Notes under the pieces: model-generated
Told to the model about the DNA's origin: nothing
What the model saw: the letters and a program-made list of their open reading frames with translations, nothing else
Databases searched by the model: none
Made by a program: the position numbers and the translations under genes
Virus record (IMG/VR): IMGVR_UViG_3300044491_002233
Coordinates: 1 to 61,160 of that record
Source of the DNA: a virus
Lineage: Duplodnaviria; Caudoviricetes
Strand: one strand, 5' to 3'
Length of the DNA: 61,160 bases
Shown: positions 637 to 52,979 of the stretch, in pieces
How the letters are laid out: the number at the start of each line of letters is the position of its first letter
Position numbering within the stretch: position 1 is the stretch's first letter

Positions 637-1653
637 TTAGTAGTTGTTGGGTCTGTAATTGGCGGCCCTAGTTATTCTAAAGCCATTTTTTTTCCAGGCC
701 ATGGTGTACGTCTTGTTTGGATCAGACCAATCGGTGTCGTAGTGATCGCCCGGATGTGTTTTGCCTTCTTCTGCCAGTGCCAGTTGTTCATCAAAGTACA
801 ATTCCGCACCCTCGTAGTAGTCTGCTCTGCAACATCTCTCCTTCATAGACACAAAGATCTGTGCCTTGAGATGTGCGTCTGTGAAACGTTCATTGACCCA
901 TTTGATGTGTCGTTCTATGTTTGCTCTGTTTAGATTATCTATAGACAGTGTGTATCCACGTCCAAATGCATTTGGATCTTCTGCTGTGAAGCACTCCATC
1001 CATGTGTCGAGACTGAAGTTGGGTGTGTGGGCCACATGATCTCTCTTGAATGCATCTATGGTGTTTTGGATGTCCAGCACAGTTTCTGCGTCAGAGGCCA
1101 ACTCTGTACGTTTTGGTCCGTGTGGGTCCGGAGCATGATGCACACGCAGGTTCAAGGTTCTGTTGGGTAGTTTACCACCCATCTCTGTGTCTTTGACCTG
1201 TATATAATTTACCTCCGGCAGTAAAGGTTTCAATAGACGATGGAAATGGCCACCATATGGCACAAATATTTCCGTACCGTCTGCTAGGTGATCGTTCTTA
1301 CAGCCATGCATTATGCAAGTCTCAAAGAGCTTGCCTTCGAACAGATCGATGCCACTCGCCTTGGCTTTATAGTGTGCATGAGTGAATCTCTTAGCAAGGT
1401 TACGCATGTAAAAGTTTATGTTCCTAAAATTAACCGGAGCCGCAAACACAATAAGATCAGCGTCATAACATTTTGCCATTTGCTCGTGCAACAGGTCAGC
1501 ACCTGTGGATGCCTCATGATCAAATTTACGTAAATTGATTATCTCTGTTTGAATTGATTGCTGATTCATCATCTTTGCCATCAAGTCGCTCCATGCTTGT
1601 GAGTCAGAGTTTTCGGCTCGTTTTAAACTGCAAGAAAAGATAATTGCTTTCAT
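637..1653 (-). CDS. Flavodoxin-like (NADPH-dependent FMN reductase fold) N-terminal domain plus unknown C-terminal domain
   Basis: N-terminal MKAIIFSCSLKR..SDS and ADLIVFAAPV match the FMN reductase pattern. Confidence 0.55.
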   Translation of the reverse strand: MKAIIFSCSLKRAENSDSQAWSDLMAKMMNQQSIQTEIINLRKFDHEASTGADLLHEQMAKCYDADLIVFAAPVNFRNINFYMRNLAKRFTHAHYKAKASGIDLFEGKLFETCIMHGCKNDHLADGTEIFVPYGGHFHRLLKPLLPEVNYIQVKDTEMGGKLPNRTLNLRVHHAPDPHGPKRTELASDAETVLDIQNTIDAFKRDHVAHTPNFSLDTWMECFTAEDPNAFGRGYTLSIDNLNRANIERHIKWVNERFTDAHLKAQIFVSMKERCCRADYYEGAELYFDEQLALAEEGKTHPGDHYDTDWSDPNKTYTMAWKKNGFRITRAANYRPNNY

Positions 1654-1733: not shown

Positions 1734-3392
1734 TTACGCTTCCGGTAGATGATTTTCAAGGGACCAACGAACAATATCGGTATGCATGGGTTTTCGCATA
1801 CCAACACAATTTAATTCAGATTGATCTTTGTGGGGAGTTTTGAAATCGAAGTCAAAATATTTTTTTAGAATATTTTTTTGACTTCCTGCATTTTTAATAT
1901 TGTCTAGCATGATGTTTTCAGATGCATTCATAATTTTAAAATATATTTCTTTATCGCAATATAATGATGTTACAAGTGTATCAACATTATGAGATACTTC
2001 ACGATTGTATAATGGTGGCGTTGCTTTTTTTGTAAAGTCGTGTTTCCAGTCGTCGGGGTGTCCTTCCTCTAGTTCTTTTAACAACTGGTCTTTCGAAGTA
2101 TCATAGAATGCATCTTGCCACGTCTTTGCTTTTTGTTCTTGTAGAATATTGTCAGCCGATGAATAGCAGTTTTTAAATGTTGACAGTTCTCTATCAAAAT
2201 CTTCTAGCATTTGTTCGGAAGTCAACTGTGTCTTGTGCATTTGTTGTGCAAACATATATTCATAATAAAAATATGCTTTATGTAAGAACATATTGTCGCC
2301 GCATTGTCCGTATAAAATTAAATCTGGTTTTTTAGAAAGATTACCCATTTGCCAATATGTTGGAATACAATCCCAATAAAAACAAGTTGGGTCATTTAAA
2401 TGCTTTTTAGTTATTGTTTCTATGTTTGACGTACTGATGTCTAATATGTCCCACTGCACTTCATTACCTCGTTCCTTCCAGTAGTTAACCATGTATTGTT
2501 TGTACTCAACCGGACAGTTTGGTGGATCAAAGGAATACGAAACTTTTTTTACATTTGGAAAATAACAATCCTGGACCACAGAGTCTATTCCTTCACTCAC
2601 ACTGCTGACAATATGCTTGTCTTTAAATTCTCTGTTAATAATGTCTGCATGGTATTGCCATTTTTTATGTATGAACTGTTCTAGCTCATTTTGGTCAGTG
2701 TATTCATGTGACGAATTCATGGCATCCATTAGGTCTTTGTAGGTGTTGTGTATTTGGACAATATTAATTTTATCGCCGACAGCTCTTATCATGTGGTCGG
2801 GTTGTAACATATAAACTTCTTTAAAAAGTGTCATGCACTGGGAAGGATCATATTGTTTTGCTCCCGGTGTGTGTTGATAGACATCTATGCCAGCATATTG
2901 ATCTGAGACATGAAATTTTTTAAGTTCGTCTGCATTTCTTCCATAAGTTGGGGAATTCATTATAAAGTTTTCCCAACGTTCAAATGTTTCCTTGGGCTCA
3001 TATGCCAATTGTTCCTCAGTGAATGTTTCTAACCGTCTAACAATTTCTTTCATGTCTAAATCATGTCTCTCTAGAGGCATCAAATAAAGAGCATTGGTAA
3101 ATTCAACCCTACCATTGTTACGCCAGAAGACCTTGCTTTGACAAAAATAATCAACAATGCAATGAGCAGTGTTTTCTGTTAAAATTGCAATTTGAAAATT
3201 GCCGTTTGCTTGTTCGAGTTCGTGAGGGTCTCTTTTTATAACATCATCGATACTTTCATCACTTATAACATAGCCAAAGTAGATGACAAGATGTTTTTCA
3301 TTTTGAAAAACTTTTACTTCGTTGTCAGCGTACCAATACCATTTGCCGTATTTGTTTGGAAGTTTTTTTGTATCGGATACAAAATATTTCAT
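1734..3392 (-). CDS. Asparagine-synthetase-like ATP-dependent amide ligase
   Basis: PP-loop SVSEGIDS (SGGxDS-like) and LYGQCGDNMF (GxGxDxxF); GATase-like ANGNFQIAIL..DYF segment; no N-terminal catalytic Cys. Confidence 0.65.
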   Translation of the reverse strand: MKYFVSDTKKLPNKYGKWYWYADNEVKVFQNEKHLVIYFGYVISDESIDDVIKRDPHELEQANGNFQIAILTENTAHCIVDYFCQSKVFWRNNGRVEFTNALYLMPLERHDLDMKEIVRRLETFTEEQLAYEPKETFERWENFIMNSPTYGRNADELKKFHVSDQYAGIDVYQHTPGAKQYDPSQCMTLFKEVYMLQPDHMIRAVGDKINIVQIHNTYKDLMDAMNSSHEYTDQNELEQFIHKKWQYHADIINREFKDKHIVSSVSEGIDSVVQDCYFPNVKKVSYSFDPPNCPVEYKQYMVNYWKERGNEVQWDILDISTSNIETITKKHLNDPTCFYWDCIPTYWQMGNLSKKPDLILYGQCGDNMFLHKAYFYYEYMFAQQMHKTQLTSEQMLEDFDRELSTFKNCYSSADNILQEQKAKTWQDAFYDTSKDQLLKELEEGHPDDWKHDFTKKATPPLYNREVSHNVDTLVTSLYCDKEIYFKIMNASENIMLDNIKNAGSQKNILKKYFDFDFKTPHKDQSELNCVGMRKPMHTDIVRWSLENHLPEA

Positions 3393-3411
3393 AATATTGT
3401 TTTTACTTATC

Positions 3412-3966
3412 TTAGATTTTTATGCCTGTAACTTTTATGAGTACCCGGTCGACATCACTTGTATTCCTTGTCCAGTGCAAGGCTTGCCAGTTGTTTAATC
3501 GCATACACTCACCCTTGGTCCATTTCCATTCTTCGTTATTAACATTAAAGATATGTCCGTCTACATGATCTTCGATTGCAACAAACATACGCCATATATC
3601 TATGCCGGGCTTCTCTAAGGTATGTTCCAAATTCAGCAAGCCGGGCAATGATAAACATACATCTTCTAAATAATCTCCTAGAAAGTCTAAATGAGGTTTA
3701 CACTCTTCTCTAGGCTTCTGTATTTGTATTTTTGCATTAATACATTTCAAAAACGGAAACTTTGCTCTAGCCCAATTTGTTATTAGATCGTTTCGTATAC
3801 TGTCATAACCTTCGGTACCTTTTTCAGGATTATCAAGATTAAACTTTGGTGTTCTGTAATTTCCGGGCAGTACTTCAAAACCCCAAGCATCTAAATCCGC
3901 AAGTCCGGCCGAGTCTTGGTACTCGTCGAGGTTATGTGCCCAGTTGATATATTCTTTTAACTTCAT
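3412..3966 (-). CDS. Asp/Asn beta-hydroxylase-like 2OG-Fe(II) oxygenase
   Basis: HxD (PHLD), distal His in HWTRNTSDVDR, terminal Arg. Confidence 0.7.
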   Translation of the reverse strand: MKLKEYINWAHNLDEYQDSAGLADLDAWGFEVLPGNYRTPKFNLDNPEKGTEGYDSIRNDLITNWARAKFPFLKCINAKIQIQKPREECKPHLDFLGDYLEDVCLSLPGLLNLEHTLEKPGIDIWRMFVAIEDHVDGHIFNVNNEEWKWTKGECMRLNNWQALHWTRNTSDVDRVLIKVTGIKI

Positions 3967-4582
3967 CTATCGCTTTTTTATAACTTGGTGCAACTTTAGG
4001 CATATACTTTATCTTATGCCCAAAGAAATAATCTTCGGTTGTCGGTAGTGTGCATTTTAATTTTTTCCTGCCTAACACAATCAATCCATTCAAATAGTAT
4101 TGTGGGTGTAGTCCTTCTCCTGACATCTGTGCCACTAGCTCGTATGTGGCTTTGGTTCTTTGGAAACAGTTAGGAATACCATCACCGATTATTGCATAGT
4201 CAACATTACTCCATATTAATTTGTCTAAGTCAGGTAGCATATGATCAGCATCATGATGACCAAACACTATAAAGTCGTGCTGTGTCCAATCATATGCGTG
4301 GCTGTCTTCTAGTACTGTGATGATTGCTTTAGTGTTAGGTTCTATTGAACGTTTGACAACATTAAAAAACTTTTCTCTTTTGTTCTCCGGCAAGAACATA
4401 TAGTTGTCCACTAGATACAACTTCTTATCAGAGCCTTGGATTTTATTCCATATATGCTTTGCTGTTGTACCAATAAATGTGCCTAACTCACAGACAGACT
4501 TCGCATCGCTGTTGTGGATGATATCAGTCATGTAGTCGTACTGTTGTACAGAATAACCAGACCACAAACTTTGTAATTGCAT
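3932..4582 (-). CDS. Class I SAM-dependent methyltransferase (Methyltransf_24-like)
   Basis: VCELGTFIGTT motif I; LYLVDNY motif II. Confidence 0.7.
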   Translation of the reverse strand: MQLQSLWSGYSVQQYDYMTDIIHNSDAKSVCELGTFIGTTAKHIWNKIQGSDKKLYLVDNYMFLPENKREKFFNVVKRSIEPNTKAIITVLEDSHAYDWTQHDFIVFGHHDADHMLPDLDKLIWSNVDYAIIGDGIPNCFQRTKATYELVAQMSGEGLHPQYYLNGLIVLGRKKLKCTLPTTEDYFFGHKIKYMPKVAPSYKKAIDEVKRIYQLGT

Positions 4583-4587
4583 AATGA

Positions 4588-4593
4588 TATTTA
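4588..4593 (-). promoter_or_regulatory. Late-type promoter box TAAATA, 5 nt before ATG
   Basis: Minus strand TAAATA-TCATT-ATG; no SD. Confidence 0.65.
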
Positions 4594-4614
4594 AGGTAGA
4601 GATATCACCGCCAC

Positions 4615-4641
4615 AAAAAAAGGCGACACAAAGCCGCCTTT
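4615..4641 (-). terminator. Rho-independent terminator after the DctP-like gene
   Basis: AAAGGCGGC-UUUGU-GUCGCCUUUUUUU. Confidence 0.8.
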
Positions 4642-4657
4642 AAATGTTATAAAAAAA

Positions 4658-5581
4658 TTATGATAATTTTTTGATACCGTCGATTAAGCCTGGAAAGAAT
4701 CTGCTTGACCATTTGTCGTAAAGTGGTTGTGCTTTTTCTCTCATTTCAGCTCTGTCTTCGTCTGACACAGTATGGATTGTAGTTCCTTGTTCTTGAGCAG
4801 TTGCTTCATATTGCTCAGCATCTTCTTGAGACCATTTTCTTTCTAATCTAGCCGCTTTGTTAGCCGCTTCAACGAAAAGAGCCTGTTCTTTTTCAGATAA
4901 TGATTTAAAGAAACTGTCACTAATCAAAATATCAGTTAAGAATAAAGAGTGTTTAGTATTAATCCAGTTTTTAGCCTTTTGTAGTCTGATGTAAGTGGTG
5001 TCTTTACAATCCATGTGAGATTGCATTTCACCTTCTAACTCATTAACAGGGCCTTTTCTTTTAACTGTGTTAACGCCTAAACTCTTCCAAAACTCTTGAG
5101 TGATTGGATTTGAGTTAGCTTTGATGTTGTGGCCTTTAAGGTCAGCTAATTTCTTAAACGGTGCATCAGAACCAATTGCTCTGTATCCGCCTGAGTAAGT
5201 GTATGCTAATCCTCTAACTCCAGTTTGTTTAGCAAGTCTGTCGTTCATCGCTCTGCCGATCGGTCCTTCTAGAACTCTTCTGGCATGAGCATGACTTTCA
5301 AACAACCAAGGCATGTCGAAAACATAAAAGTTGTCGTCATTGGTTGGTGCCGCTAGCTCGTAAACTTCAGTTTGGGACATTTGAATTTCGCCACTTTGGA
5401 CTAATCCCCAAATTTTATCTCTTGTGAAATCTGCGTCGTATTGTGTTTTGTACTGATCAGTTGTAAGTATCTCGATCTTGTACTCCGAATTTACCTCTTC
5501 TAACATCTTAGCAAATGCTTTTGCTGTTCTTAAGAATAAGTGTTCCGGTTGGTGGCTTATCAGCCATTTGATGTTTTTCAT
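4658..5581 (-). CDS. dctP: TRAP-type substrate-binding protein (DctP family) without signal peptide
   Basis: VFDMPWLFES..HARRVLEGPIG, GGYRAI, LADLKG and the long C-terminal helix are typical of DctP; SD AAGGAG; in-frame TAA at 5606-5608. Confidence 0.8.
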   Translation of the reverse strand: MKNIKWLISHQPEHLFLRTAKAFAKMLEEVNSEYKIEILTTDQYKTQYDADFTRDKIWGLVQSGEIQMSQTEVYELAAPTNDDNFYVFDMPWLFESHAHARRVLEGPIGRAMNDRLAKQTGVRGLAYTYSGGYRAIGSDAPFKKLADLKGHNIKANSNPITQEFWKSLGVNTVKRKGPVNELEGEMQSHMDCKDTTYIRLQKAKNWINTKHSLFLTDILISDSFFKSLSEKEQALFVEAANKAARLERKWSQEDAEQYEATAQEQGTTIHTVSDEDRAEMREKAQPLYDKWSSRFFPGLIDGIKKLS

Positions 5582-5624
5582 TGCGATCTCTCCTTGTATT
5601 GCAATTTAGTTTAAAACGTACAGT

Positions 5625-5630
5625 TATTTA
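5625..5630 (-). promoter_or_regulatory. Late-type promoter box (AATAAATA) for the DctP-like gene
   Basis: Same box as before the sheath and tube genes; followed by a leader carrying an SD. Confidence 0.6.
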
Positions 5631-5662
5631 TTGGATTATGTTGAGTTGGTAAAAAAAGTGTG

Positions 5663-6319
5663 TTATTTCTTCTTAAACACCACTTCTTTCTTTCGTGATC
5701 TGCCATACTCTGTATAGCCCAGTGTGTTTAATAATTCGATGATCTTCTTCCCCGCCTGTCTCTGGAGCTCGTTTTTGTGTTCGATCTCCACATTGAGCAC
5801 ACAATCGTTATCAAGCAGTGTTTGTTGTCCACCCAGCAGTATGTCGTATTCACTGCCTTGTGTGTCTATCTTTATTAGATCTACGTTCTTGAAATTGTAA
5901 TCGTCCAGTCTCTTTATTTCTAAAACTGATTCTTCCACTTGGTCTTCGAATACCTGATCCCTAAAGAAACTGTGTGCCCCGGATGTGGTCAATGACTTAT
6001 AGAATGTTTTGGTCTCTTGTTTCGAACCTAAGCCCACTTGGTGCAGGTCATAATTTTCTTTACCTGAAAGATTTGTCTCCAAACACTCTATGTTGGAGGC
6101 ATCTGGTTCGAATATAACCACGTTCTCAAATCTGTCACAGAAATCCCTGCTCCAAAATCCTATGTTTCCGCCTATGTCTATCGCTGTATGGAAGTTCTTG
6201 ACTTGGTGTAACGCATACTCTCTCTGAAGTCTTTGGTATGTTACCTCGTTGTTTATCTTCATCCACTCTTCGTAGTGTTGATCGTAATCTGGTAAAAACC
6301 AATCATGTACTTTACGCAT
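5663..6319 (-). CDS. FkbM-family methyltransferase
   Basis: AIDIGGNIG, FEP, LIKIDTQGSE; TAAATA at 6325-6330, 5 nt before ATG. Confidence 0.85.
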   Translation of the reverse strand: MRKVHDWFLPDYDQHYEEWMKINNEVTYQRLQREYALHQVKNFHTAIDIGGNIGFWSRDFCDRFENVVIFEPDASNIECLETNLSGKENYDLHQVGLGSKQETKTFYKSLTTSGAHSFFRDQVFEDQVEESVLEIKRLDDYNFKNVDLIKIDTQGSEYDILLGGQQTLLDNDCVLNVEIEHKNELQRQAGKKIIELLNTLGYTEYGRSRKKEVVFKKK

Positions 6320-6346
6320 GCGGATATTTAAATGAAATCTATGTTG

Positions 6347-7819
6347 TTACTGTTCTTCATCTGAGTGCAGTTCATTTAGAAGTTGTCTCAGTTTACCGCC
6401 TTCCACAGTAGCCTTAACCTTGACTCCTAACGCATCGCCTTTACGAGGATCCGGCACTTCTGGTCTAGCATCTGTGTCCGTGTTGCCCGTGACTTTGGAT
6501 GTCTGCTTCAATGAGTCATATATTTTATTCTTACCTTGCTGATTATAGCTCTGTGACTCGTCCTCGTCTAGACTTCTTATACGCAGACTGTCCACGTCAA
6601 ACTCGAGGTCTACTTTCTGTCCGACTCCCGAACTTGATCTGGTCTTCATGAACTGTATCTGGTATCTACCACGTTCCTTCATCGCCCGTGAAGTGAATAT
6701 ACCTATCACATTGTCCGCTGTCTGTATCTTGGATAGTCCGCCCGATATATGACTGTGATCAAACTCTATCTCCTCAACACTAGCCCTGTTCAACTGTGAT
6801 GCTGTAGCCAACACACACTGTTTCTCAACGACCAAGTTCCTCAGTTCCTCACTCACATACTTGTCTTTGATAAACAAGTCTGCTGGTGATATCCTTTTGC
6901 TCTTAGGCATCATCAGATCCAAGTAGTCAATCAGTATGCAGTCTATTTTCTTCTTGTTTTTCAGTTCTAGTTCCTTCAGATATGTTCTCACATCCAACAC
7001 GTTGCTACCACTCGGTAAGTATTTGATCTGCAGGTTACCTGATTTCTTTTTCAACATCTTGACCTTCATCTCAACGTTTTCTATTTCGGGAAATACTTTT
7101 CTTGTTGGAATATTTGTCATCATGGCATCCAATCTCATGGCAGTCAGTTGCTCGCTCAACTCAAATGATATGTAGCACACATTCAGTCCAGCCAGTGCCC
7201 AGTTGACCGCAAGATTCTGCAAGAACAAACTCTTACCTGCACCCGATCCACCTGCAAAGATGTTCAGCTCGCCTCTGTTGAATCCGCCAAACAGTTTCTT
7301 GTCCAAGTTGGCCCAACCTGTACTGATCTGTCCGTTGTTGTCTTTGAGTGCTTCAAGTCTTCCTTTTGGATCTTCGAAATAGTCCGTGCCGAGATCCCTT
7401 GTGAGGCCAACCTGTACTGCTTCCTTGACCATGTCCTCGACTGGACCATAGTCACCTCTCTCTAATAGATCAGCGGATGACAGTATTGCTTGTTCAAGTG
7501 CTTTGTGTCTACAAAATGTTTCAAACTCGTCCAGCAACCAATTGAAATGGCTTGGGTCCAGATCCTTCGCTGTTTTTAATTTTATATCGTGTGATGCATT
7601 GACTATGTCAACTTCTGGCATGACCTTGTACTCGTCCATGTAGTCTTTGACGAACTTGGCAATTGGTTGCAGTTTACGATCAAATGAATTAGGATTGAAT
7701 ATATTCTGTGCCCTCGCAAATGATTCAGCATCCGCCAACAACATTTCTATGTACAATTTCTGCACATCAAAAGAATAGTTCTTAGCCTGGTGTTGTTCGT
7801 TATTGTTATAGTCAGCCAT
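6347..7819 (-). CDS. gp41: Replicative DNA helicase (T4 gp41/DnaB-like)
   Basis: Walker A GGSGAGKS, ISFE, LIDYLD, ASQLNR, KTR. Confidence 0.92.
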   Translation of the reverse strand: MADYNNNEQHQAKNYSFDVQKLYIEMLLADAESFARAQNIFNPNSFDRKLQPIAKFVKDYMDEYKVMPEVDIVNASHDIKLKTAKDLDPSHFNWLLDEFETFCRHKALEQAILSSADLLERGDYGPVEDMVKEAVQVGLTRDLGTDYFEDPKGRLEALKDNNGQISTGWANLDKKLFGGFNRGELNIFAGGSGAGKSLFLQNLAVNWALAGLNVCYISFELSEQLTAMRLDAMMTNIPTRKVFPEIENVEMKVKMLKKKSGNLQIKYLPSGSNVLDVRTYLKELELKNKKKIDCILIDYLDLMMPKSKRISPADLFIKDKYVSEELRNLVVEKQCVLATASQLNRASVEEIEFDHSHISGGLSKIQTADNVIGIFTSRAMKERGRYQIQFMKTRSSSGVGQKVDLEFDVDSLRIRSLDEDESQSYNQQGKNKIYDSLKQTSKVTGNTDTDARPEVPDPRKGDALGVKVKATVEGGKLRQLLNELHSDEEQ

Positions 7820-8720
7820 TTTTTACTCCACATTTTATTTTACAACATTCGTGTGCAGAAGTAAATTGTTTTGTTGAATTAAAAAAATCTTTTATCTCGT
7901 TCCATTCCATTATGCTTTCGAGTGTGTTGTCTTTGATATTGAACATCTTTGTTTTTGGTGAGAACACACTTTTGTATTTGTAATGGTAACTCCCCATCCA
8001 ACAACAGGGATAGAAATCTCCTTCTGCGTCAATATACAGGTTATGTTGTGGTTTGTCATTTACCATACAGTTTGGTAATATTGATGTTGTAAATGTTGGA
8101 TCATCGAGAATCTCTTGTGATTGTTTGTATGACATGTCGACAAACTCCTCATCGGGCATTAGGTCTTTTTCTCCCAGCCATCTGTCGCTGTGTTCCAATC
8201 TAAACTGGTCAAACCCGATATTTTTTGAAAATGTTTCTGCGTCTTTTACTTGGTGTTGATTGTGTTTGAATACTATAAATTTCCATACCAGGGTACAACT
8301 CCCTGTTCTAACACATTCGACGGCATCCATTATGGATTTCCATTTTGCATTTTTCCTATACAAATGATTGGTGTCTTCTAGCCCGTCTATAGAAAATATT
8401 AGTGTGTCATTTTTATCTAGGATGTTTGATAATACTTGCCACCATTTTTTTGTCTTGGCAGAGCCATTTGTTGTAATATGTAGTCTACAGTTGTTGTCTT
8501 TTAATTGTTTGCACAATTCTAAAAAATTAGAATGATAAATTGGATCCCCATTATTACCACACATGTTTATCGTTGCATTTGGACCAACAAAGTTTACAAG
8601 ATGTTCGATGTTTATTTCGTGCAACAATCTTTTTTTAAATGTCTCGTAGAACCAAGTCCTTGAGCACAGAGGACATTCTAATGTGCATTTACTGGTTGGT
8701 TCGACATGAAAACTAACCAT
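7812..8720 (-). CDS. Radical SAM protein with twitch/SPASM-like C-terminus
   Basis: CTLECPLC (CxxxCxxC), TTNG, FSIDG, YIDAEGDFYPCC. Confidence 0.88.
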   Translation of the reverse strand: MVSFHVEPTSKCTLECPLCSRTWFYETFKKRLLHEINIEHLVNFVGPNATINMCGNNGDPIYHSNFLELCKQLKDNNCRLHITTNGSAKTKKWWQVLSNILDKNDTLIFSIDGLEDTNHLYRKNAKWKSIMDAVECVRTGSCTLVWKFIVFKHNQHQVKDAETFSKNIGFDQFRLEHSDRWLGEKDLMPDEEFVDMSYKQSQEILDDPTFTTSILPNCMVNDKPQHNLYIDAEGDFYPCCWMGSYHYKYKSVFSPKTKMFNIKDNTLESIMEWNEIKDFFNSTKQFTSAHECCKIKCGVKNG

Positions 8721-9726
8721 ACATTTTCCTTTTTAAATCTATTTTCAATTTACTTGACTCTGTTGTTTTCAGTATCGATTGTATAGTAAACAATCTGCCA
8801 TATTTCGACACAGCATCTGCCACATCACCCACAGTTTTATCCCATTCGGGAAATGCCACGCTCCACCCAAATTCTGTTGCCTGGTCCACTAACTTCTGTC
8901 CGGGAGCATCTCTGTCCGGAACAACAATAACTTGTCGACCAAGTCCGCCTATCAATTCTTTTTGCGTGTCATTTATTTCTGAACCCAATATGCTAACACC
9001 AGACACGGCTATGGCATCGAACGGTCCTTCGGTTACTATTACAAATTTTCTCGTCCAATCTTGTGCATCCATATTAAAAACATATCCGGGCCAAACGTCT
9101 GTGTAGTATTTTACTCCTTGTGATTCCTCGAACATCCTGCCCGTGAATCCAACCACTTCACCTCTCCAATAGAATGGTATCAGTAGCCTTTGATAGATGT
9201 CCCAGGTCTTGTCAGGCGAGTACATGAAGTCATACCAGTCGGCGCCTATGCCCCTGCTTTCCAAGTATTTTAGTAGTCCGTCGATCTTCTTCCATTGTGG
9301 TTCTGTGAGGTCGTTGCCCACGTACTTCTCTAGCCACACATCTAGTTTGTGTGTGTTCTTAGGCAGTGTCTTGTTTTTGAATGTTATGAATTTCTTCTTC
9401 TCGTACTTGACATCTCCTTCTTCCTCACGCATGGCCTCTATGGCCAACTTACGTATGGTGTCCTCAGGTATGCCTATGTAACTCATGAACTGCCGCATCT
9501 TGTAGGTCAGTTTACGTCCTATCACATAACTGGCCTTGAATCCACAGTTGAAACAGTGATAACTGACGGTACCATCCGCACTGGTCATCAGTCCCCCACG
9601 TTTCTTCTTGTCTGCAGTCTCTCCGTTGTACACACAACAGGGTGCGTTGAAACTAATCCATCCGCTAGGGGTTTTCTTTCTGTTCGCAGGTAGACTTGTC
9701 AGGATAGTAGATCCAATTAGATTCAT
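8713..9726 (-). CDS. gp61: DNA primase (T4 gp61-like)
   Basis: Zn ribbon (PCC...HCFNCG), FTGR, TOPRIM VTEGPFDA and PDRD. Confidence 0.88.
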   Translation of the reverse strand: MNLIGSTILTSLPANRKKTPSGWISFNAPCCVYNGETADKKKRGGLMTSADGTVSYHCFNCGFKASYVIGRKLTYKMRQFMSYIGIPEDTIRKLAIEAMREEEGDVKYEKKKFITFKNKTLPKNTHKLDVWLEKYVGNDLTEPQWKKIDGLLKYLESRGIGADWYDFMYSPDKTWDIYQRLLIPFYWRGEVVGFTGRMFEESQGVKYYTDVWPGYVFNMDAQDWTRKFVIVTEGPFDAIAVSGVSILGSEINDTQKELIGGLGRQVIVVPDRDAPGQKLVDQATEFGWSVAFPEWDKTVGDVADAVSKYGRLFTIQSILKTTESSKLKIDLKRKMYG

Positions 9727-40426: not shown

Positions 40427-43400
40427 TTAGTTCCCTAAATTTGCAATTTCTCCTGTGTTTTTAATTCTCAACGGTATGTAAATAAACTCAACTGATTTTA
40501 TTGGTTCAATTGCTATGTCCACATACAGTTCATTCCTATCAATCCTCGTAGGTGTGTTGTTTGTGTCATCACAAACTACTAGGAAGTCATACAATGCTCT
40601 CTGTCCAACAAGTTCCAACAAGAATGATTCAACTGCTTGTTTGATTTCATTTCTTGTTAATTCATCATTTGGTTCAAAAATAAATGGTTTAGCAATAGCA
40701 TCTAGTTGTGTTCTTAAGTACACTGCTAACCTTGAAACATTGATCCTGTCTAAGGCAGAACTTCCTGATGTCTTGGTCAAGTTACCAAAGTTAACAATTC
40801 CTGCTCCTGAGAAGAAAGTGATTGGGTTCACTTTGACCTCATGCATTGAATCTCTCACTGACTCCGTAACAGATATTGTTTGGAATTCTCCTGAACTTGC
40901 ATTTACATAACCAACTGCTGTAGCGTTGTCAATAACACCTCTCCTAGTACCCGCTGGTGCAAACCATGGGAAAGAAACGTTGTCGCTGTTGGCCAGTGTC
41001 CTCATCATCATGTGACTTGGTGGAACAACAATTGATTTTCCTGTGTTATCTGTCGTTAATCCTGATGGATAAAACAAGCCTAAGTAATCACTTGAACTTA
41101 CAAGGCCGTCTTCGCCGTTGTCAAGTGCTGACGCTGAATTGTTTGCCCAGTTGCTAATTGATGTTGCTGTGCCTTCTAATCTCAAAGGAGTGTCACCTAT
41201 CACAAACGCTGTGTTGTTTCTGTCTGTATTTAGATTGACCATGTTTGAAATCAATTCTGGATAACCCGGTGTAGCAATCACGTTGAATCCTCTTTGGTCT
41301 TCTCTGATTGCTTGGTTGGTGTCGATCTCTGATTTCATTTGCTCAACGATCACTTTTCTCTGTGCTTTTCTACCAAAAGATCCAGAACCGTCTGCGTTGT
41401 TGCTTGATTTAGTAACCCATCTGTCAGGGTAGTAAGTTGATACGCTCTCGTTACTTGCTCTGATGTTACCTAAACCAGTTGATCCGCTTCCTGGATATTT
41501 CGTAGTTGTGATGTAACTGTTTTTGTATTCTTTTACATTGTAACCAGATCTTCTAGTGTTCCATAGCAAGATACCTTGTGGGTAGTTGTCTGGATTAGGA
41601 GCATCTGGATCTAGGAAGCCATCGCTCAACAAGTTCTTGATCGTTGATTTAGTTCCTGCCGCTGTCGATGTTCCCGCCACTTTGTCGGTTGAAGTGTGCC
41701 ATCTTGCATCTGCGAAAACTACACCATCTTCTGTTGTTTGGTCTGTTTTGTCAACTAACACCCATGCCGCACCAGTTGTAGTAACTGCCACTTGGTTTGC
41801 TGTGTTTGTTGAACTAATTGAAGCCGCTGTATTGTATTTGTAAAGTTTTGGATAGTTCTCAAGGTCGCTTGTGTCAATCCATAAGTCATTAGTTACAAGT
41901 GTAGTACCATCTGACTGTGTAGTTGGTGCTGTAGCACTGAACTGTGGACCATTTGGATCTGTTGATGCGTATGCTGTCGCATAACCAACCCAAGTCGTAC
42001 CGTTATGTGCCATGATGTCTGCTTCTAAACTTGTATCGTACCATAATGTACCATCCGCTGGTTCATTAGTTGGTGCACTTGTTCCTGCTGTGTAACTTAA
42101 TCTTTTCCAGTTCGATGCAATCACTTCGTTACCTACAGTTGAGTCTTCCGAATCACCTGTTGGTGCAACATACAAGTTGTCCACTAGTGTTGAGCTGTTT
42201 GCAGTGTATCCACCGTAAGCATGTGCCTGTGATGTTCCTAGTCCTGCATCTCCCAATGGGTCACCGTTGATATTGTTTAATCTAAGTTCACCACCCAGTG
42301 TGTGTTCTAAAACAATCTCACCAGTGGTTAATTTTGATGCTTTTACATATTTTAATTCAGTAGTTGAAGTTTCTAGTGCATTCACATTAACTGCACCATT
42401 AACATCTGACACAAAAGTGTCTGAAGTTGTACCACTCATTGTGATAGTGATCGCTGTACTTAAACTTGCACTGTTCTTTCTCGATTCTTGAATTGTAAAA
42501 GATTCAGAACCTGTGAATGTGTGTGACGTCAGTCTGCTTGTTACTTTAGTTGCTCCGCCTTCGTATCTAAAAAGTTGGAAGTCACCAATATTTGGTGTGA
42601 TATCTTGTTGTCCATCACTTGACTGTTCAGTGACATTGTACTGTGCGTATAAACTGCCCACAGTCAAACCTGCTCCACCTTTCGCTGGATCTAGGTTGTA
42701 GATCGCACTGTGGTTGTTGGCATAAAGTGGACTAGCAACTGCTGAGAAACTAGCACTTGATGAACTGTAAAGTTTAGCAACAAGGTTCGCACCTGAGTTT
42801 GCGTTTGTAGTTTTGAACCAAACTGATCCACTTGGTCTGTCTTCGTCTGCGGTCTTCCAAGTTGGTCTGTTGGTGTGTTTGTCTTGTAAGAATTTAGCGT
42901 TTTTGTATGTGCCTGCTGTGATCCCTAGGTCTGCTAAAAGTGTTCCAGAAGCACCTGCTTCGAATCTGATGGTACCGTTACCTGCTGTAGAATCACCAAA
43001 TGATAGACCATTGTGGAATATCTCTAGATTTCCTGTCGTAGAGTTTACACTTGCTGTAACACCTGCCGCGTTGGCAGAGTTAATTGATGATGCAACGTTT
43101 GAAAGTGTTGTAGAACTTGTTGTAACAGTCTCACCGTTGATCTTCATTGTGTGTCCACTCGTCACTGTAGTTCCTGATGCCACTGTAATCACTGGGATAG
43201 ACAAATGCCATGCAGATGAACCAAGTTGTACCCAAGTATTGCTTGGTGTTTTCTTGTACATCTTATTAGTCACGTGTGTTGTATTAATTGCGTAATCACC
43301 TGCTACTCCAATTGAAGTCAAAGGTGCACCAGTTGATACGCCACCTACTAAATCTGTCACTGCTGTAATCAGTGTTGGAGAAATTGTTGTGAATGCTTGA

Positions 43401-43858
43401 TCTGTTTTGTTCCATTCAAACAATCCATATGAGCTTGATGCAAGGTCAAACCAATATGTGCCGTCTGTTGGATTTGCTGTTGGAGCCGATGCACTTCCTA
43501 ATAATTCACTAGTGTTAACATTAGCTCTTAGTACGTATGCTCTATTGGCAACTCCTAAGAACGAGTATGCCGCTTGTAAACCCCATTCATTTAATTCATA
43601 TCCGTGTAACGAATTTCCTGAAACGTCTGTGTAGAATTTTGGATCTCCAAAAGTCTCTGTTAATTCTCTTTGAGATGAGACCAAATATGCAGTGTTGGCA
43701 TTGGCAACTGTTGTGCCCGTTGCAGTTGTTGTGCCTGCTCCGTTTGTCTTATCCTGTCCTGATGCTACTATAAAAAGAGGTGTAGTACCCGCATCTGATG
43801 GTACATAAAAACTTTCGTTTATTACTGAAACCTCTACTCCTGGTGATGTTAAAGCCAT
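40427..43858 (-). CDS. gp18: Contractile tail sheath with large central insertion
   Basis: SPGVEV, FGDP, PWFAPAG.RRG, DRINV.RL, FEPND, CD.TNNTP; SD AAGGAG and TAAATA at 43897-43902. Confidence 0.93.
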   Translation of the reverse strand: MALTSPGVEVSVINESFYVPSDAGTTPLFIVASGQDKTNGAGTTTATGTTVANANTAYLVSSQRELTETFGDPKFYTDVSGNSLHGYELNEWGLQAAYSFLGVANRAYVLRANVNTSELLGSASAPTANPTDGTYWFDLASSSYGLFEWNKTDQAFTTISPTLITAVTDLVGGVSTGAPLTSIGVAGDYAINTTHVTNKMYKKTPSNTWVQLGSSAWHLSIPVITVASGTTVTSGHTMKINGETVTTSSTTLSNVASSINSANAAGVTASVNSTTGNLEIFHNGLSFGDSTAGNGTIRFEAGASGTLLADLGITAGTYKNAKFLQDKHTNRPTWKTADEDRPSGSVWFKTTNANSGANLVAKLYSSSSASFSAVASPLYANNHSAIYNLDPAKGGAGLTVGSLYAQYNVTEQSSDGQQDITPNIGDFQLFRYEGGATKVTSRLTSHTFTGSESFTIQESRKNSASLSTAITITMSGTTSDTFVSDVNGAVNVNALETSTTELKYVKASKLTTGEIVLEHTLGGELRLNNINGDPLGDAGLGTSQAHAYGGYTANSSTLVDNLYVAPTGDSEDSTVGNEVIASNWKRLSYTAGTSAPTNEPADGTLWYDTSLEADIMAHNGTTWVGYATAYASTDPNGPQFSATAPTTQSDGTTLVTNDLWIDTSDLENYPKLYKYNTAASISSTNTANQVAVTTTGAAWVLVDKTDQTTEDGVVFADARWHTSTDKVAGTSTAAGTKSTIKNLLSDGFLDPDAPNPDNYPQGILLWNTRRSGYNVKEYKNSYITTTKYPGSGSTGLGNIRASNESVSTYYPDRWVTKSSNNADGSGSFGRKAQRKVIVEQMKSEIDTNQAIREDQRGFNVIATPGYPELISNMVNLNTDRNNTAFVIGDTPLRLEGTATSISNWANNSASALDNGEDGLVSSSDYLGLFYPSGLTTDNTGKSIVVPPSHMMMRTLANSDNVSFPWFAPAGTRRGVIDNATAVGYVNASSGEFQTISVTESVRDSMHEVKVNPITFFSGAGIVNFGNLTKTSGSSALDRINVSRLAVYLRTQLDAIAKPFIFEPNDELTRNEIKQAVESFLLELVGQRALYDFLVVCDDTNNTPTRIDRNELYVDIAIEPIKSVEFIYIPLRIKNTGEIANLGN

Positions 43859-49570: not shown

Positions 49571-51793
49571 TTATGCTCCCACGTAGGCCTCATCTGAGCC
49601 TAGGTCTAATGTTTCTGTGGTACCGATCGGGTCCATCATGTCAAAAACCGTTCCAAGGTTCACACCGAACGCGTCAGTTCCGCCAGACTCGAATGGCGTC
49701 TCCTGTGTGGTCTGGGCGGCGTTGTAACTGAGGTCGTAGTTGCCATCCGAACCCGGCATCGTGGATATGGTCGAGTTGGGATAACTTGATCCGGATCCTC
49801 CTCCACCACCGTCCGCCCAGCTCAACACACCGGTACCGTCCGTTGATAATACCTGTCCGGACGTGCCCGTGCCGTCGGGCAGTGTGAGTATGGTGTTAGA
49901 CGTTACCGTGCCTGGAGCCCTCAAGGCAATGTACTGTCCGCCCGAGGTGTCCTGTAATCTCACCTGACCCTGTGCCAACACGTCGATCTGTGTGTTGATC
50001 TGTGGTGATGTCAGCGTCTTGTTGGTCAATGTCTCCGATCCGGTTTTAGTGGCTAGTGCAGATGCTTCAACACCATCAACTGTGTCCGCGTCAAGGCCTG
50101 ATCCCGTGCCGTCCACGGTCTTGATCGCGGTCAGTATCTCTGACGCTGTCTGGTCAGCAGTTGCACCACTTTCAATGCCATCCAGTTTGGTGCCGTCTGT
50201 GGCCACGTCCCTGCCATCCACTGTGCCGGTCACTGTGATGTTGCCGGTCACTGACAGTGCGTTGTTGGCCACCACCTGTCCGCTGAATGTTGCAGAGGTG
50301 TCGGTAATCACAAGTTCGGTGTTGCCGTCCGCAGAGACGGTGATGGTCCCATTTGAGCCTGAATCCGTTACAGCCACTGATGAGTTCAGTTGTGCTATGG
50401 AGGTGGTTGAAACCGCCGCCACAGAGTCATCCACGTACACTTTGGTGGCCGCGTCGGTGTCCGCCGTTGGCGTGCCCAGGTTTATGATTTTGTTGGAGTC
50501 GACGTTGACCGCACCCGTGCCCGAGTTGGTTATGGTGATGTCCGCGTTGGACGGGGCGGATATGGTGGAACCAGTTATGACCAAGTCACCCACACCCGCG
50601 GTCTCCACCGTGGTTGATTCGTAGTCGTTGGCGATGCTGTTGTGTTGTTGACCCCTGCCCGCTTTCTTCTTTAACACCCGCAGTGAATTAGTGGCAGTGT
50701 CCGCGGACAGCGCCAGGTCTCCGAGGTATATGGTTGACCCCGTCACATACAAGGCCGCCCACTGTGACGTGGGAGAACCCAGACTGTAGGTGTTGTCCGC
50801 GCGTGGCACTATGTTGCCGCCCATGTCTATGCTGTCATTGATCTGTATGGCGCTTGAGTCATCGGACTTGATCGAGTTCAGTACCACCTGACCCGTGCCA
50901 CCCGGATTAAGCGTGATGTCTGAGTTGCTGGGACTATTGATCGTGCTTCCTGTGAATGTGATGTCTCCGGTTGAGGCTACCATATCGACAAAACTTAACG
51001 TACCACTTCCGTTGGTCTGTAGCACCTGATTGGCACTACCATCTGTGGTTGGGAACTTGTATGCGTTGTTGAACGTGATAGCACCACTGTCGTTGCCGTC
51101 AATCTTGAATTGTGTCTTACTTGGTGTGTTGGCATCTGCCGATGTGCCATCTGTGGTGACCGAAACAGCAAACTGTGTCCTGTTGGCATTGTTGGTGTTG
51201 TCAAAAGCAAACGTACCACCGACAATCAGTGCTGAACCATTCCAGTATTCGTGGTTACTTCTATATAGATAATCTCCCGAGTTGACTGCAAGTGGTGAGG
51301 CAATCGTGCCTCTGTATCTCCTTGTTCTTAAATCTGGGGCGTCAGCACTATCGTTGTACTGCTCCATCCTGACCTGTGCGGTCTGGGCACCTTCGCCCGT
51401 CATGTGTAGTGTCACTTCAGGCGAGGATTGGTTGATACCAATGTAGTTGTTGCCCTGGTCGATGCTGAGCGTGGATGTCGTCGTTATGAAGTTGCCGGTC
51501 GGATCCACCACGCACAGTTCGTTGGCCGCACCAAGGGTGGTGCCGTCCAGTACATTAAGTTCTGCGGCAGTGGAGGTGACCGCTGTGCCACCTATCGATA
51601 GATTGGTGGTGTTTAATCCTGTTGTGGTTGCTGTTCCGTTTACCTGTAATGCTGTTGTGGGTTCTGAAGTACCTACACCTATCCTTGAGTTCGTGACGTC
51701 GAGGTATAAAAGATTCGTCTCGAATGCTAGGTCCGTGCCGTTACGCGTCAGGTTAGACTTCAGCACCGAACCGGATATACGACCAATGGCCAT
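49571..51793 (-). CDS. Tail fibre / virion structural protein
   Basis: G/S/T-rich; RIGVGT..P, DAATK.YVD, GQVLSTDGTG.LSW fibre motifs. Confidence 0.75.
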   Translation of the reverse strand: MAIGRISGSVLKSNLTRNGTDLAFETNLLYLDVTNSRIGVGTSEPTTALQVNGTATTTGLNTTNLSIGGTAVTSTAAELNVLDGTTLGAANELCVVDPTGNFITTTSTLSIDQGNNYIGINQSSPEVTLHMTGEGAQTAQVRMEQYNDSADAPDLRTRRYRGTIASPLAVNSGDYLYRSNHEYWNGSALIVGGTFAFDNTNNANRTQFAVSVTTDGTSADANTPSKTQFKIDGNDSGAITFNNAYKFPTTDGSANQVLQTNGSGTLSFVDMVASTGDITFTGSTINSPSNSDITLNPGGTGQVVLNSIKSDDSSAIQINDSIDMGGNIVPRADNTYSLGSPTSQWAALYVTGSTIYLGDLALSADTATNSLRVLKKKAGRGQQHNSIANDYESTTVETAGVGDLVITGSTISAPSNADITITNSGTGAVNVDSNKIINLGTPTADTDAATKVYVDDSVAAVSTTSIAQLNSSVAVTDSGSNGTITVSADGNTELVITDTSATFSGQVVANNALSVTGNITVTGTVDGRDVATDGTKLDGIESGATADQTASEILTAIKTVDGTGSGLDADTVDGVEASALATKTGSETLTNKTLTSPQINTQIDVLAQGQVRLQDTSGGQYIALRAPGTVTSNTILTLPDGTGTSGQVLSTDGTGVLSWADGGGGGSGSSYPNSTISTMPGSDGNYDLSYNAAQTTQETPFESGGTDAFGVNLGTVFDMMDPIGTTETLDLGSDEAYVGA

Positions 51794-51888
51794 ACCTGGT
51801 ACTCCTTATAATAATGTTAGTGTGGCAAACGCCACGCACGGCCTCTTTATCATTGCCGGCCGACAGCAGTATGAGTATTTATGCGCCT

Positions 51889-51920
51889 AAAAAAAAAGGG
51901 CGATGTTTCCACCGCCCTTT
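51889..51920 (-). terminator. Rho-independent terminator
   Basis: AAAGGGCGGUG-GAAA-CAUCGCCC followed by U9. Confidence 0.9.
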
Positions 51921-51947
51921 GATTCTACTAAAAAGTAAAATTATTTA

Positions 51948-52979
51948 TTAGTTGTTGGTCCTCACAACACAGTTTACCAATTTGATACCTGCGTCTGAGT
52001 TGGTCTCAAGTGCTCTACCAATAACGTGGAATGGGTTGATTGACTCACCCGCCGCTACTGCTCTAGCACAACCTTTCACGCTTGAAGTCACAAGCCTCTG
52101 ACCTTTTGTCACAGCACCTGTTACCCTAACTGGAGTCCTTCCAGTCATCGCGATGAATGGGTGTGATTCGTTGTTACCTGCCGCTGAGTTCATCATGAAC
52201 GCTGGTTGGTCGGACACAACACCGAACACTGCTTCTGACATCTCAGAAGTTGATTCAGTGATCTCTGCGTCACCGCCCAGTTCTACAACTGCGCCTGCTG
52301 TCATTGGAGCGTCTGCTTCGAAACGCTCGCCGATGTCCGCGTACTGCGCCGATGTTGCTGTAGCGTGTAACACGTTACATCTCATGTCCACGAGGTTGAA
52401 GTCCGAGTTTGGAACCTCGGTTCCCTCGTTGTGTGTTGATCTAAGTGCAGTCCAGGCACCACCCGCGTTGCCGTAGATGGATGTTCCGTCATCCGCGTAT
52501 GCGTCGTCCCATAGCCAGTAGATGTCTTGTTCAGCCACGTCTGATCCCGTACCCCTGTGTAGGTGCACGCCCGAGAACCTCGGCATCTGTCCTGACTGTG
52601 ACACGTTTTTGTTAAGTGCGATGATGGCGTCCTCAACGCTTAAGTTCTGTGTGTTGATGATTGTTTCCGTACCGTTTACAGTAAGGTTACCTGGGATGGT
52701 CACACCGTCTGACGTGATCGTCATCGACGTTGTGTTGTCCGCAGTTACAGTGATCGTACCGTTCGATCCCGAGTCAGTGACAGTGATGTTTGTGTCTAGT
52801 TGTGAAATACTGTTCTGTGACAGACCCGCTAGTGAGTCGTCCACATATTTCTTGTTGGCCACGTCACCGTCAGCGCTTGGTGCCGCTGTGGCTAGACCTG
52901 TGATGGTGTTAGCACTTGCTGATATAGTAATATCACCAACTGATACACCGTTATGTACTCTAAAGTTTCTTGTTGTCAT
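51948..52979 (-). CDS. Tail-fibre-type protein with peptidase-G2/chaperone-like C-domain
   Basis: DVANKKYVD, GNLTVNGT..VED.II.LN, YADIGERF...IAMTGRTPVRV. Confidence 0.7.
   Translation of the reverse strand: MTTRNFRVHNGVSVGDITISASANTITGLATAAPSADGDVANKKYVDDSLAGLSQNSISQLDTNITVTDSGSNGTITVTADNTTSMTITSDGVTIPGNLTVNGTETIINTQNLSVEDAIIALNKNVSQSGQMPRFSGVHLHRGTGSDVAEQDIYWLWDDAYADDGTSIYGNAGGAWTALRSTHNEGTEVPNSDFNLVDMRCNVLHATATSAQYADIGERFEADAPMTAGAVVELGGDAEITESTSEMSEAVFGVVSDQPAFMMNSAAGNNESHPFIAMTGRTPVRVTGAVTKGQRLVTSSVKGCARAVAAGESINPFHVIGRALETNSDAGIKLVNCVVRTNN

Follow-up and report, generated by a model that had tools for sequence, protein, structure and literature searches.

A leaderless DctP-type binding protein of large aquatic phages with a probable cytoplasmic role apart from membrane transport

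The binding proteins of TRAP (tripartite ATP-independent periplasmic) transporters are textbook extra-cytoplasmic receptors, and a conserved arginine is regarded as the selectivity filter of their family. Here we describe a phage gene of the DctP family whose product, 307 amino acids (aa) long, has the TRAP binding-protein fold and no leader. The gene lies on the minus strand at 4658..5581 of IMG/VR record IMGVR_UViG_3300044491_002233, a viral sequence of 61,160 bases that was analysed over its whole length and is hereafter called the window. We propose that in this large, uncultured estuarine phage a complete DctP-type binding protein remains cytoplasmic during infection and would function there with no TRAP membrane transporter. 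The best reading is an intracellular ligand-binding role outside transport, because the protein has no leader, belongs to a leaderless clade, has no TRAP partner in the phage records examined and is preceded by late-type signals; judged from sequence, a cytoplasmic binding role away from the transporter is very probable. The whole explanation, in which this cytoplasmic, transporter-free protein is made late and possibly serves acid-activating enzymes, is one we favour only slightly over its denial.

An earlier note on this DNA had singled out the interval 4615-5630, which comprises one minus-strand gene plus its signals, as coding for a cytoplasmic or virion ligand-binding protein and not a transporter part. 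The intracellular, non-transport side of that claim stands (all 61 distinct viral copies are leaderless, and neither DctQ nor DctM was found in the phage records examined), whereas its virion and immune-sponge ideas gained no support. Beyond the note, we find that phages carry hundreds of copies of the gene, that it keeps company with enzyme genes, and that Bdellovibrionota hold distant relatives that bear signal peptides and do not lie beside dctQM.

A complete binding-protein fold without an export signal

Profile searches place the protein in the DctP family. Pfam DctP (PF03480) matches residues 11-291 over profile positions 6-283 of 286 (E = 4.3e-36; 125.1 bits, cut-off 23.4), and NCBIfam NF037995 scores 107.4 bits against a cut-off of 50; TIGR00787 stays below its cut-off (85.3 bits vs 175.05), and PHROGs returns an unnamed family only. 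The AlphaFold2 model, built on a 148-row alignment, has a mean predicted local distance difference test score (pLDDT) of 96.3 and a predicted template-modelling score (pTM) of 0.93. The Foldseek matches listed from the PDB are TRAP binding proteins throughout, with template-modelling (TM) scores of 0.77-0.85: 4p47, IseP (8t9t/8te9), 4nhb, 4xeq, 4xfe, DctPAm (7bbr), PA5167 and SiaP. Both the model and these matches show the two-lobed binding-protein fold with its long spanning helix, and automatic pipelines label such genes "C4-dicarboxylate transport". Within the family the protein belongs to a subfamily marked by its own invariant motifs: an N-terminal W-x3-H-x-P, an H-x-H after the P-F-L-F strand, T-Y-S-G-G-x-R and T-T-x-x-R. 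At E <= 1e-10, a set of 1749 candidates of greater length (539-2000 aa) contained no fused form, a negative that counts as weak evidence.

The protein starts (MKNIKWLISH; ATG at 5581-5579) where the first strand of the mature fold starts. Ahead of the ATG lies a leader (5582..5624, minus strand) that contains a ribosome site, AAGGAG at 5595-5590, 8 nt from the start codon, and an in-frame TAA at 5608-5606. This TAA is codon -9, with eight sense codons between it and the ATG, and makes an N-terminal extension impossible; it confirms the earlier note's claim that the protein begins at the mature fold and that an upstream in-frame stop bars a signal peptide. No export signal was found in the first 35 residues, where the top 10-residue hydropathy is 0.95.

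The membrane partners of a TRAP system are likewise missing from the phage records. Searches with DctM (PF06808) and DctQ (PF04290) found neither in the window, bearing out what the note had said of dctQM, although this absence is weak by itself because CheckV puts the record at only 17% completeness. Neither was found in five related phage records (122-180 kb, 33-78% complete). DctM is present in two of the five bacterial genomes that hold relatives, and both times it adjoins a classical DctP and not the relative. The note had named homologues with signal peptides, and dctQM elsewhere in their genomes, as the finding that would speak against it; signal peptides do occur, in distant bacterial relatives only, and the association with dctQM did not appear.

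Leaderlessness is a property of a large group of proteins. A word-indexed search gave 299 relatives at E <= 1e-5, of which the best 120 (37-100% identity) start within about 10 residues of the W-x3-H-x-P strand and without a hydrophobic N-terminus; the only departure is a 365-aa form with a start that was probably called too far upstream. An exhaustive search returned 3619 representatives at E <= 1e-3, and among the best 150 of these, forms with a hydrophobic leader appear from about E 1e-45 downward. An alignment of 148 representatives contains 92 without an extension, 46 whose leader is hydrophobic and 10 extended by a non-hydrophobic stretch. Relatives are encoded on at least 326 IMG/VR contigs, and we examined 80 of these viral loci, which hold 61 distinct copies. 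A leader is absent from all 61 and from the window's copy; nine of the 61 have longer called open reading frames (ORFs), but in each of these an internal Met directly precedes the motif and hydrophobic stretches are lacking. GTDB species genomes contributed 58 loci, mainly from Bdellovibrionota (Bacteriovoracaceae, Pseudobdellovibrio) and from metagenome-assembled genomes (MAGs) of Elusimicrobia, some of them on contigs of 0.2-1.8 Mb. One Elusimicrobia genome (G009:C15:250000-276000) carries at least eight subfamily paralogues within about 25 kb.

A FastTree phylogeny of 112 rows, rooted by midpoint only, joins 13 leaderless copies from bacteria with the window's copy and the 61 viral ones in one clade with Shimodaira-Hasegawa-like support of 100; two bacterial rows marked as lacking a signal peptide fall outside it and are borderline calls. 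The clade is nested among signal-peptide-bearing Bdellovibrionota proteins. Such signal-peptide-bearing relatives from Bdellovibrionota and Elusimicrobia share the subfamily motifs at about 30-35% identity and, like the phage genes, do not lie next to dctQM; they differ in their hydrophobic leaders and in their neighbours, which are genes for AMP-binding enzymes, MBOAT acyltransferases and ABC transporters.

A control comes from the same viral loci. TctC-like binding proteins (PF03401), members of the TTT family (tripartite tricarboxylate transporters), are encoded directly beside leaderless DctP-like genes in seven loci, and all seven bear classic signal peptides. An exported, phage-encoded TTT-family binding protein is unusual in itself. 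Because every one of these neighbours carries a signal peptide, these phages evidently do supply leaders to binding proteins destined for export. The TTT family also offers the nearest precedent for a binding protein without a partner: its "orphans" (Bug/TctC of Bordetella, AdpC) greatly outnumber or lack adjacent membrane partners, according to the part of a 2018 review that treats them (PMC5812351). Those orphans are nonetheless exported, periplasmic PF03401 proteins, whereas the phage DctP-like protein is leaderless and the phage TctC-like genes keep their leaders.

Closer precedents did not emerge. A nucleotide search of 50,697 phage records with a 2.4-kb region gave no match, and tblastn against the same records, a set from which close kin of the window may be missing, gave only six weak matches at 21-26% identity, none of them a relative in a cultured phage. 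No description of leaderless or phage DctP-type proteins was found in the literature searched, which took in neither supplements nor subscription journals and in which "DctP" is confounded with dCTP. The review section on TRAP binding proteins presents them as extra-cytoplasmic (PMC5812351). Compared with these proteins (PF03480), the phage protein has the same full two-lobed fold, a family-level score and an Arg at the position of SiaP Arg-127; it differs in lacking a signal peptide and DctQ/DctM, in having Lys at the Arg-147 clamp, and in the invariant motifs peculiar to its subfamily.

A variable clamp residue and near-invariant residues elsewhere

The clamp position was mapped with a profile of residues 112-170 built from 27 relatives and searched against PDB sequences. 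Profile positions 2-58 align to residues 107-162 of Haemophilus influenzae SiaP, an alignment that sets Lys154 at the position of SiaP Arg-147 and Arg134 at that of SiaP Arg-127. The SiaP R147A chain 2xwk scores 12.9 bits and the wild-type chains 14.8, a drop to be expected if residue 147 falls on the profile's Arg column. The mapping agrees with the earlier note, which had read the usual carboxylate-binding KIR motif as NIK in this protein. We also considered Arg134, in T-Y-S-G-G-Y-R, as the classical clamp Arg and rejected it, since it maps to the Arg-127 position.

In the DctP family at large, Arg occupies the clamp position in 5943 of 6142 sequences (96.8%), as given in the part of Fischer et al. 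that surveys the family (PMC4646407). The same part of that paper describes the clamp Arg as needed for high-affinity, carboxylate-selective binding, with mutants that still function at high substrate concentration (PMC4646407). Among the 92 leaderless relatives, by our count, the position holds R in 37, A in 19, L in 8, K in 6 and Y in 5. Arg is present in only 21 of the 46 leader-bearing relatives of the subfamily, and relaxation of the clamp therefore predates loss of the leader.

Other residues of the protein are far more constant. Arg134 is retained in 87 of the 92 leaderless relatives, and seven further residues are near-invariant in the same set: H10 (85), H97 (85), H99 (91), R199 (91), H211 (91), E247 (92) and R248 (90). 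We infer that a small organic anion would be bound through Arg134 and other invariant residues of the pocket region. Its affinity may be below that of scavenging receptors and would still be enough at the concentrations met in the cytoplasm.

A stand-alone unit with late-type signals

The record is a fragment of a large, distantly T4-like myovirus, as its terminase kinship, its gene set and its 17% completeness indicate. Its large terminase is nearest to that of the Pseudomonas jumbo phage PA5oct (286 kb), at 54.7% identity. The window also encodes a tail sheath, a tail tube, virion proteins, a gp32-like single-stranded DNA (ssDNA)-binding protein, a primase, a DnaB-type helicase and a protein of the radical S-adenosylmethionine (SAM)/SPASM type, and estuary and seawater metagenome runs contain DNA near-identical to it. 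The DctP-like gene is sited in the replication/metabolism part, near the primase, helicase and methyltransferase genes. In that part the radical-SAM/SPASM gene (7812-8720, minus strand) sits between those for the primase (8713-9726) and the helicase (6347-7819), and it recurs in six related loci. Elsewhere in the window, the tail sheath (40427-43858, minus strand) is 1143 aa long, far above the usual length for a sheath; its match to phrog_10581 runs end to end, which makes the extra length a family trait.

The DctP-like gene is bracketed by signals of its own. An ATAAATA box of late-promoter type (5625..5631, minus strand) lies 44 nt before the ATG, and 17 nt past the stop codon comes an intrinsic-terminator-like hairpin with a T run (4619..4641, minus strand), consisting of a 9-bp stem with five G-C pairs, a loop of five and then TTTTTGTGGCG. 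The earlier note's late box, strong ribosome site and own terminator are thus all in place (5631-5625, 5595-5590 and 4641-4619). The gene would form a transcription unit by itself, running from a T4-type late box to its own terminator; with both, the protein is probably made in quantity late in infection.

What stands out is where the boxes are placed. ATAAATA is not enriched in the window (14 occurrences vs 10.8 expected); 11 of the 14 fall no more than 100 nt upstream of the start of a gene on the same strand, as against 5.6% of all positions (binomial P 5e-12), and two more lie 5 nt ahead of an internal ATG in ORFs whose called start is probably too long. The genes that follow these boxes include those for the tail sheath, the tail tube, a tail-fibre-like protein, virion proteins and the ssDNA-binding protein. 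Across the viral loci, ATAAATA occurs within 100 nt upstream in 38 of 59 distinct DctP-like upstream regions, compared with 135 of 1232 other ORFs of the same loci, and close relatives have GGTAAATA in its place. At 51876-51948 (minus strand), upstream of the gene for the 740-aa tail-fibre-like protein (49571-51793), a G+C-rich hairpin and its T run stand between two of the window's boxes, which are 66 nt apart; this arrangement may represent the junction of a terminator with a promoter, or else a very short late transcript.

A resemblance between the leader and that of the sheath gene, which the note had reported, is real but modest. Among 63 upstream regions the sheath-gene leader is the best local match to the DctP-like leader (score 28, median 14); that score is attained by 4 of 2000 shuffles, and the ATAAATA box itself makes up much of the match. 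Between the late box and the ribosome site, a block TTTAAA-N-TAAATT...ATACAAGGAG is kept in seven relatives whose proteins are 39-87% identical. Their consensus RNA fold has 0 predicted pairs, so the block is taken as a linear motif and not as a demonstrated structure; it could be a protein- or ribosome-binding leader.

The DctP-like gene is matched identically by contigs of X16 and X18, two estuary metatranscriptome libraries that belong to different studies; this shows presence in RNA libraries only, as such libraries can contain DNA. When contigs of four libraries were compared with 3300-6400, those of X16 and X18 covered only parts of the gene and left its neighbours uncovered. Contigs of this kind can neither rank genes nor show transcript ends, and the uncovered parts carry no inference.

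Enzyme neighbours, rival explanations and meaning

We clustered 2089 ORFs from all loci to define the neighbourhoods. In the window's lineage a recurrent set of three genes, here c4, c5 and c35, stands directly downstream of the DctP-like gene. None of the three reaches a Pfam cut-off, and searches of PDB sequences with their profiles gave nothing usable. The nearest, c4 (3932..4582, minus strand; 216 aa), is class I SAM methyltransferase-like and adjoins the DctP-like gene in 19 loci; four of 12 members match Methyltransf_24 (best E 1.3e-3, below cut-off), and its ESM Atlas look-alikes are Methyltransf_24 clusters (score 0.95). It is followed by c5 (3412..3966, minus strand; 184 aa), an Fe(II)/2-oxoglutarate oxygenase-like cupin present in 18 loci, in which H92, D94 and H164 form an invariant H-x-D...H. 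Six of 12 c5 members match Asp_Arg_Hydrox (best E 2.8e-4, below cut-off) and three match TauD. In some loci c4 and c5 stand the other way round, and this speaks for linkage by selection.

The third gene, c35 (1734..3392, minus strand; 552 aa), occurs in nine loci and has an asparagine-synthetase/beta-lactam-synthetase fold by model and Foldseek. Its AlphaFold model (pLDDT 86.8) matches beta-lactam synthetase best (E 5e-12), then carbapenam synthetase, TsnB9 and AsnB, over an E range of 5e-12 to 1e-8. The two-domain fold, of N-terminal nucleophile (Ntn) type plus PP-loop, aligns over about 600 columns (E 5e-12 to 1e-9) at a TM score of about 0.5 with a large root-mean-square deviation, so the domains are placed differently, relative to each other, from those of the matched structures. 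ESM Atlas look-alikes are Asn_synthase clusters (score 0.98), and the Pfam signal is weak (two of seven members at E 0.09, below cut-off). The protein shares the two-domain fold with beta-lactam synthetase, carbapenam synthetase and AsnB and differs in sequence, at about 10% identity, and in its PP-loop, where the invariant motif is S266-E-G-x-D-S271 and not S-G-G-x-D-S. It has no N-terminal Cys nucleophile: residue 2 is a Lys that is near-invariant in 32 sequences. Beta-lactam synthetase, too, is not known to carry an N-terminal catalytic Cys.

Upstream, an FkbM-type methyltransferase gene (5663..6319, minus strand; Methyltransf_21 E 3e-16; phrog_8156) lies beside the DctP-like gene in eight loci; we list it as context only. 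Downstream of the module, a 338-aa ORF (637-1653, minus strand) has a weak flavodoxin-like/FMN-reductase N-terminus (E 0.0027, below cut-off); ORFs of about 340 aa that form a separate cluster hold the same position in related loci.

Other lineages replace this set with one or two S-G-G-I-D-S PP-loop proteins beside the DctP-like gene (c1, c13, c111), and with a DUF2061 membrane protein (81-86 aa), a redoxin and a TctC-like protein as further neighbours. In hhalign, c35 and this S-G-G-I-D-S family align over the motif alone, with a probability of 3%. Taken together, a PP-loop or AsnB-fold gene lies within three genes of the DctP-like gene in 30 of the 61 distinct viral copies plus the window's, 14 of them directly adjacent. 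Around the leaderless gene, three bacterial and three viral loci have in common the genes for a PP-loop protein, an AMP-binding enzyme, a short-chain dehydrogenase and a beta-keto-acid cleavage enzyme (PF05853); the set gives the impression of a catabolic or biosynthetic operon that has passed between bacterial and viral contigs. Six bacterial MAG loci have the leaderless DctP-like gene as the third member of a same-strand trio, behind a major facilitator superfamily (MFS) transporter and a conserved 200-aa protein with no Pfam match that is also found in two viral loci; the trio may point to a connection with another type of membrane carrier.

The enzyme company suggests, more speculatively, what the binding protein might do with its ligand: the bound compound would be held for, or handed to, the enzymes that travel with the gene. 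Here these would be the ATP-dependent, amide-forming enzyme of AsnB/beta-lactam-synthetase fold, the 2-oxoglutarate-oxygenase-like protein and the SAM methyltransferase-like protein. Since the folds in this company are of the acid-activating, amide-forming kind, the most economical mechanism would be that an organic acid is held or handed over. A link to an amide-forming pathway is nonetheless tentative, and we would sooner bet against it than for it. Complex prediction for the DctP-like protein with the 552-aa c35 protein scored 0.00 in both runs, which were made without controls and give no verdict either way. In its boldest form, which we offer as a rather unlikely conjecture, the protein would be a cytoplasmic TRAP-receptor descendant and the subunit that captures the substrate in a soluble, "binding-protein-dependent" enzyme system. 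Such a system, common to some predatory bacteria and hundreds of large phages of aquatic habitats, would present an organic acid to PP-loop/AsnB-fold enzymes that build a product late in infection.

Much of the same evidence can be read in other ways. The protein might be a sequestering sponge, produced in large amounts to bind a signalling molecule or a metabolite of the host inside the cell, with no enzyme partner. Its stand-alone unit with a promoter-like box, a strong ribosome site and a terminator would suit that use, as would the many unrelated gene contexts in which the gene is found, and a binding fold without catalytic precedent lends itself to stoichiometric capture. An anti-defence sponge fits poorly all the same, because it would be needed early and the late-type box is one that tail and virion genes share; moreover, about half of the viral copies lie within three genes of PP-loop or AsnB-fold enzymes. 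Likeness to known sponge families (Tad, Acb type) was not seen, though no search was aimed at them. We consider a sponge unlikely. That the fold has itself become an enzyme, or an enzyme subunit, with conserved His, Glu and Arg residues acting on the bound compound, is quite unlikely. The near-invariance of H10, H97, H99, R199, H211, E247 and R248 would accord with catalysis, as would the unconserved classical clamp Arg and the enzyme-rich neighbourhoods, and other periplasmic-binding-protein folds have turned catalytic; yet H211 also aligns with a His of the classical protein 4p47, and we know of no catalytic member of the DctP family.

Packaging of the protein into the virion, or its injection, would follow naturally if it were made together with structural genes, as its late-type box and its sheath-like leader might suggest. 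Late boxes also precede the ssDNA-binding protein gene, however, and the DctP-like gene lies among primase, helicase and methyltransferase genes in the replication/metabolism part; nor did any homologue turn up in a cultured phage with a virion proteome, tblastn giving only the six weak matches among 50,697 phage records. We think a virion role very unlikely. There is hardly any chance, finally, that the protein is a true transporter part, exported without a leader or released at lysis to feed a host TRAP transporter. The DctP fold is intact, and phages do encode exported binding proteins such as the leader-bearing TctC-like ones, but all 61 viral DctP-like copies are leaderless while those neighbouring TctC-like genes keep their leaders, and DctQ/DctM were not found in the phage records. 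The high-affinity Arg clamp that scavenging would need is also lost (PMC4646407).

Several observations weigh against the reading we prefer, that of a cytoplasmic binding protein that works apart from any transporter and possibly for enzymes. The promoter-like box and the terminator are consensus matches only. The phage records are incomplete (17-78%), so dctQM may lie elsewhere in these genomes. The Arg-147 residue's loss is, as the alignments stand, not explained by a move to the cytoplasm. The link to enzymes is a statistical one and incomplete: no recurrent neighbour at all accompanies 15 of the 61 viral copies, and in the window's own 16-row clade some copies stand beside a prohead protease gene or unrelated genes instead. 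Because the gene has its own box and terminator, it could be a free-standing cassette in variable regions, whose neighbours may be coincidental.

The leaderless clade breaks both rules by which TRAP binding proteins are known, having neither leader nor transporter and a variable residue at the clamp. It is large, phage-dominated and under selection, and it carries late-gene signals across many phage lineages. If its ligand were identified, a late step in the metabolism of jumbo phages that abound in estuaries and the sea would come to light, one that current annotation does not capture, and with it a new intracellular reuse of the binding-protein fold.

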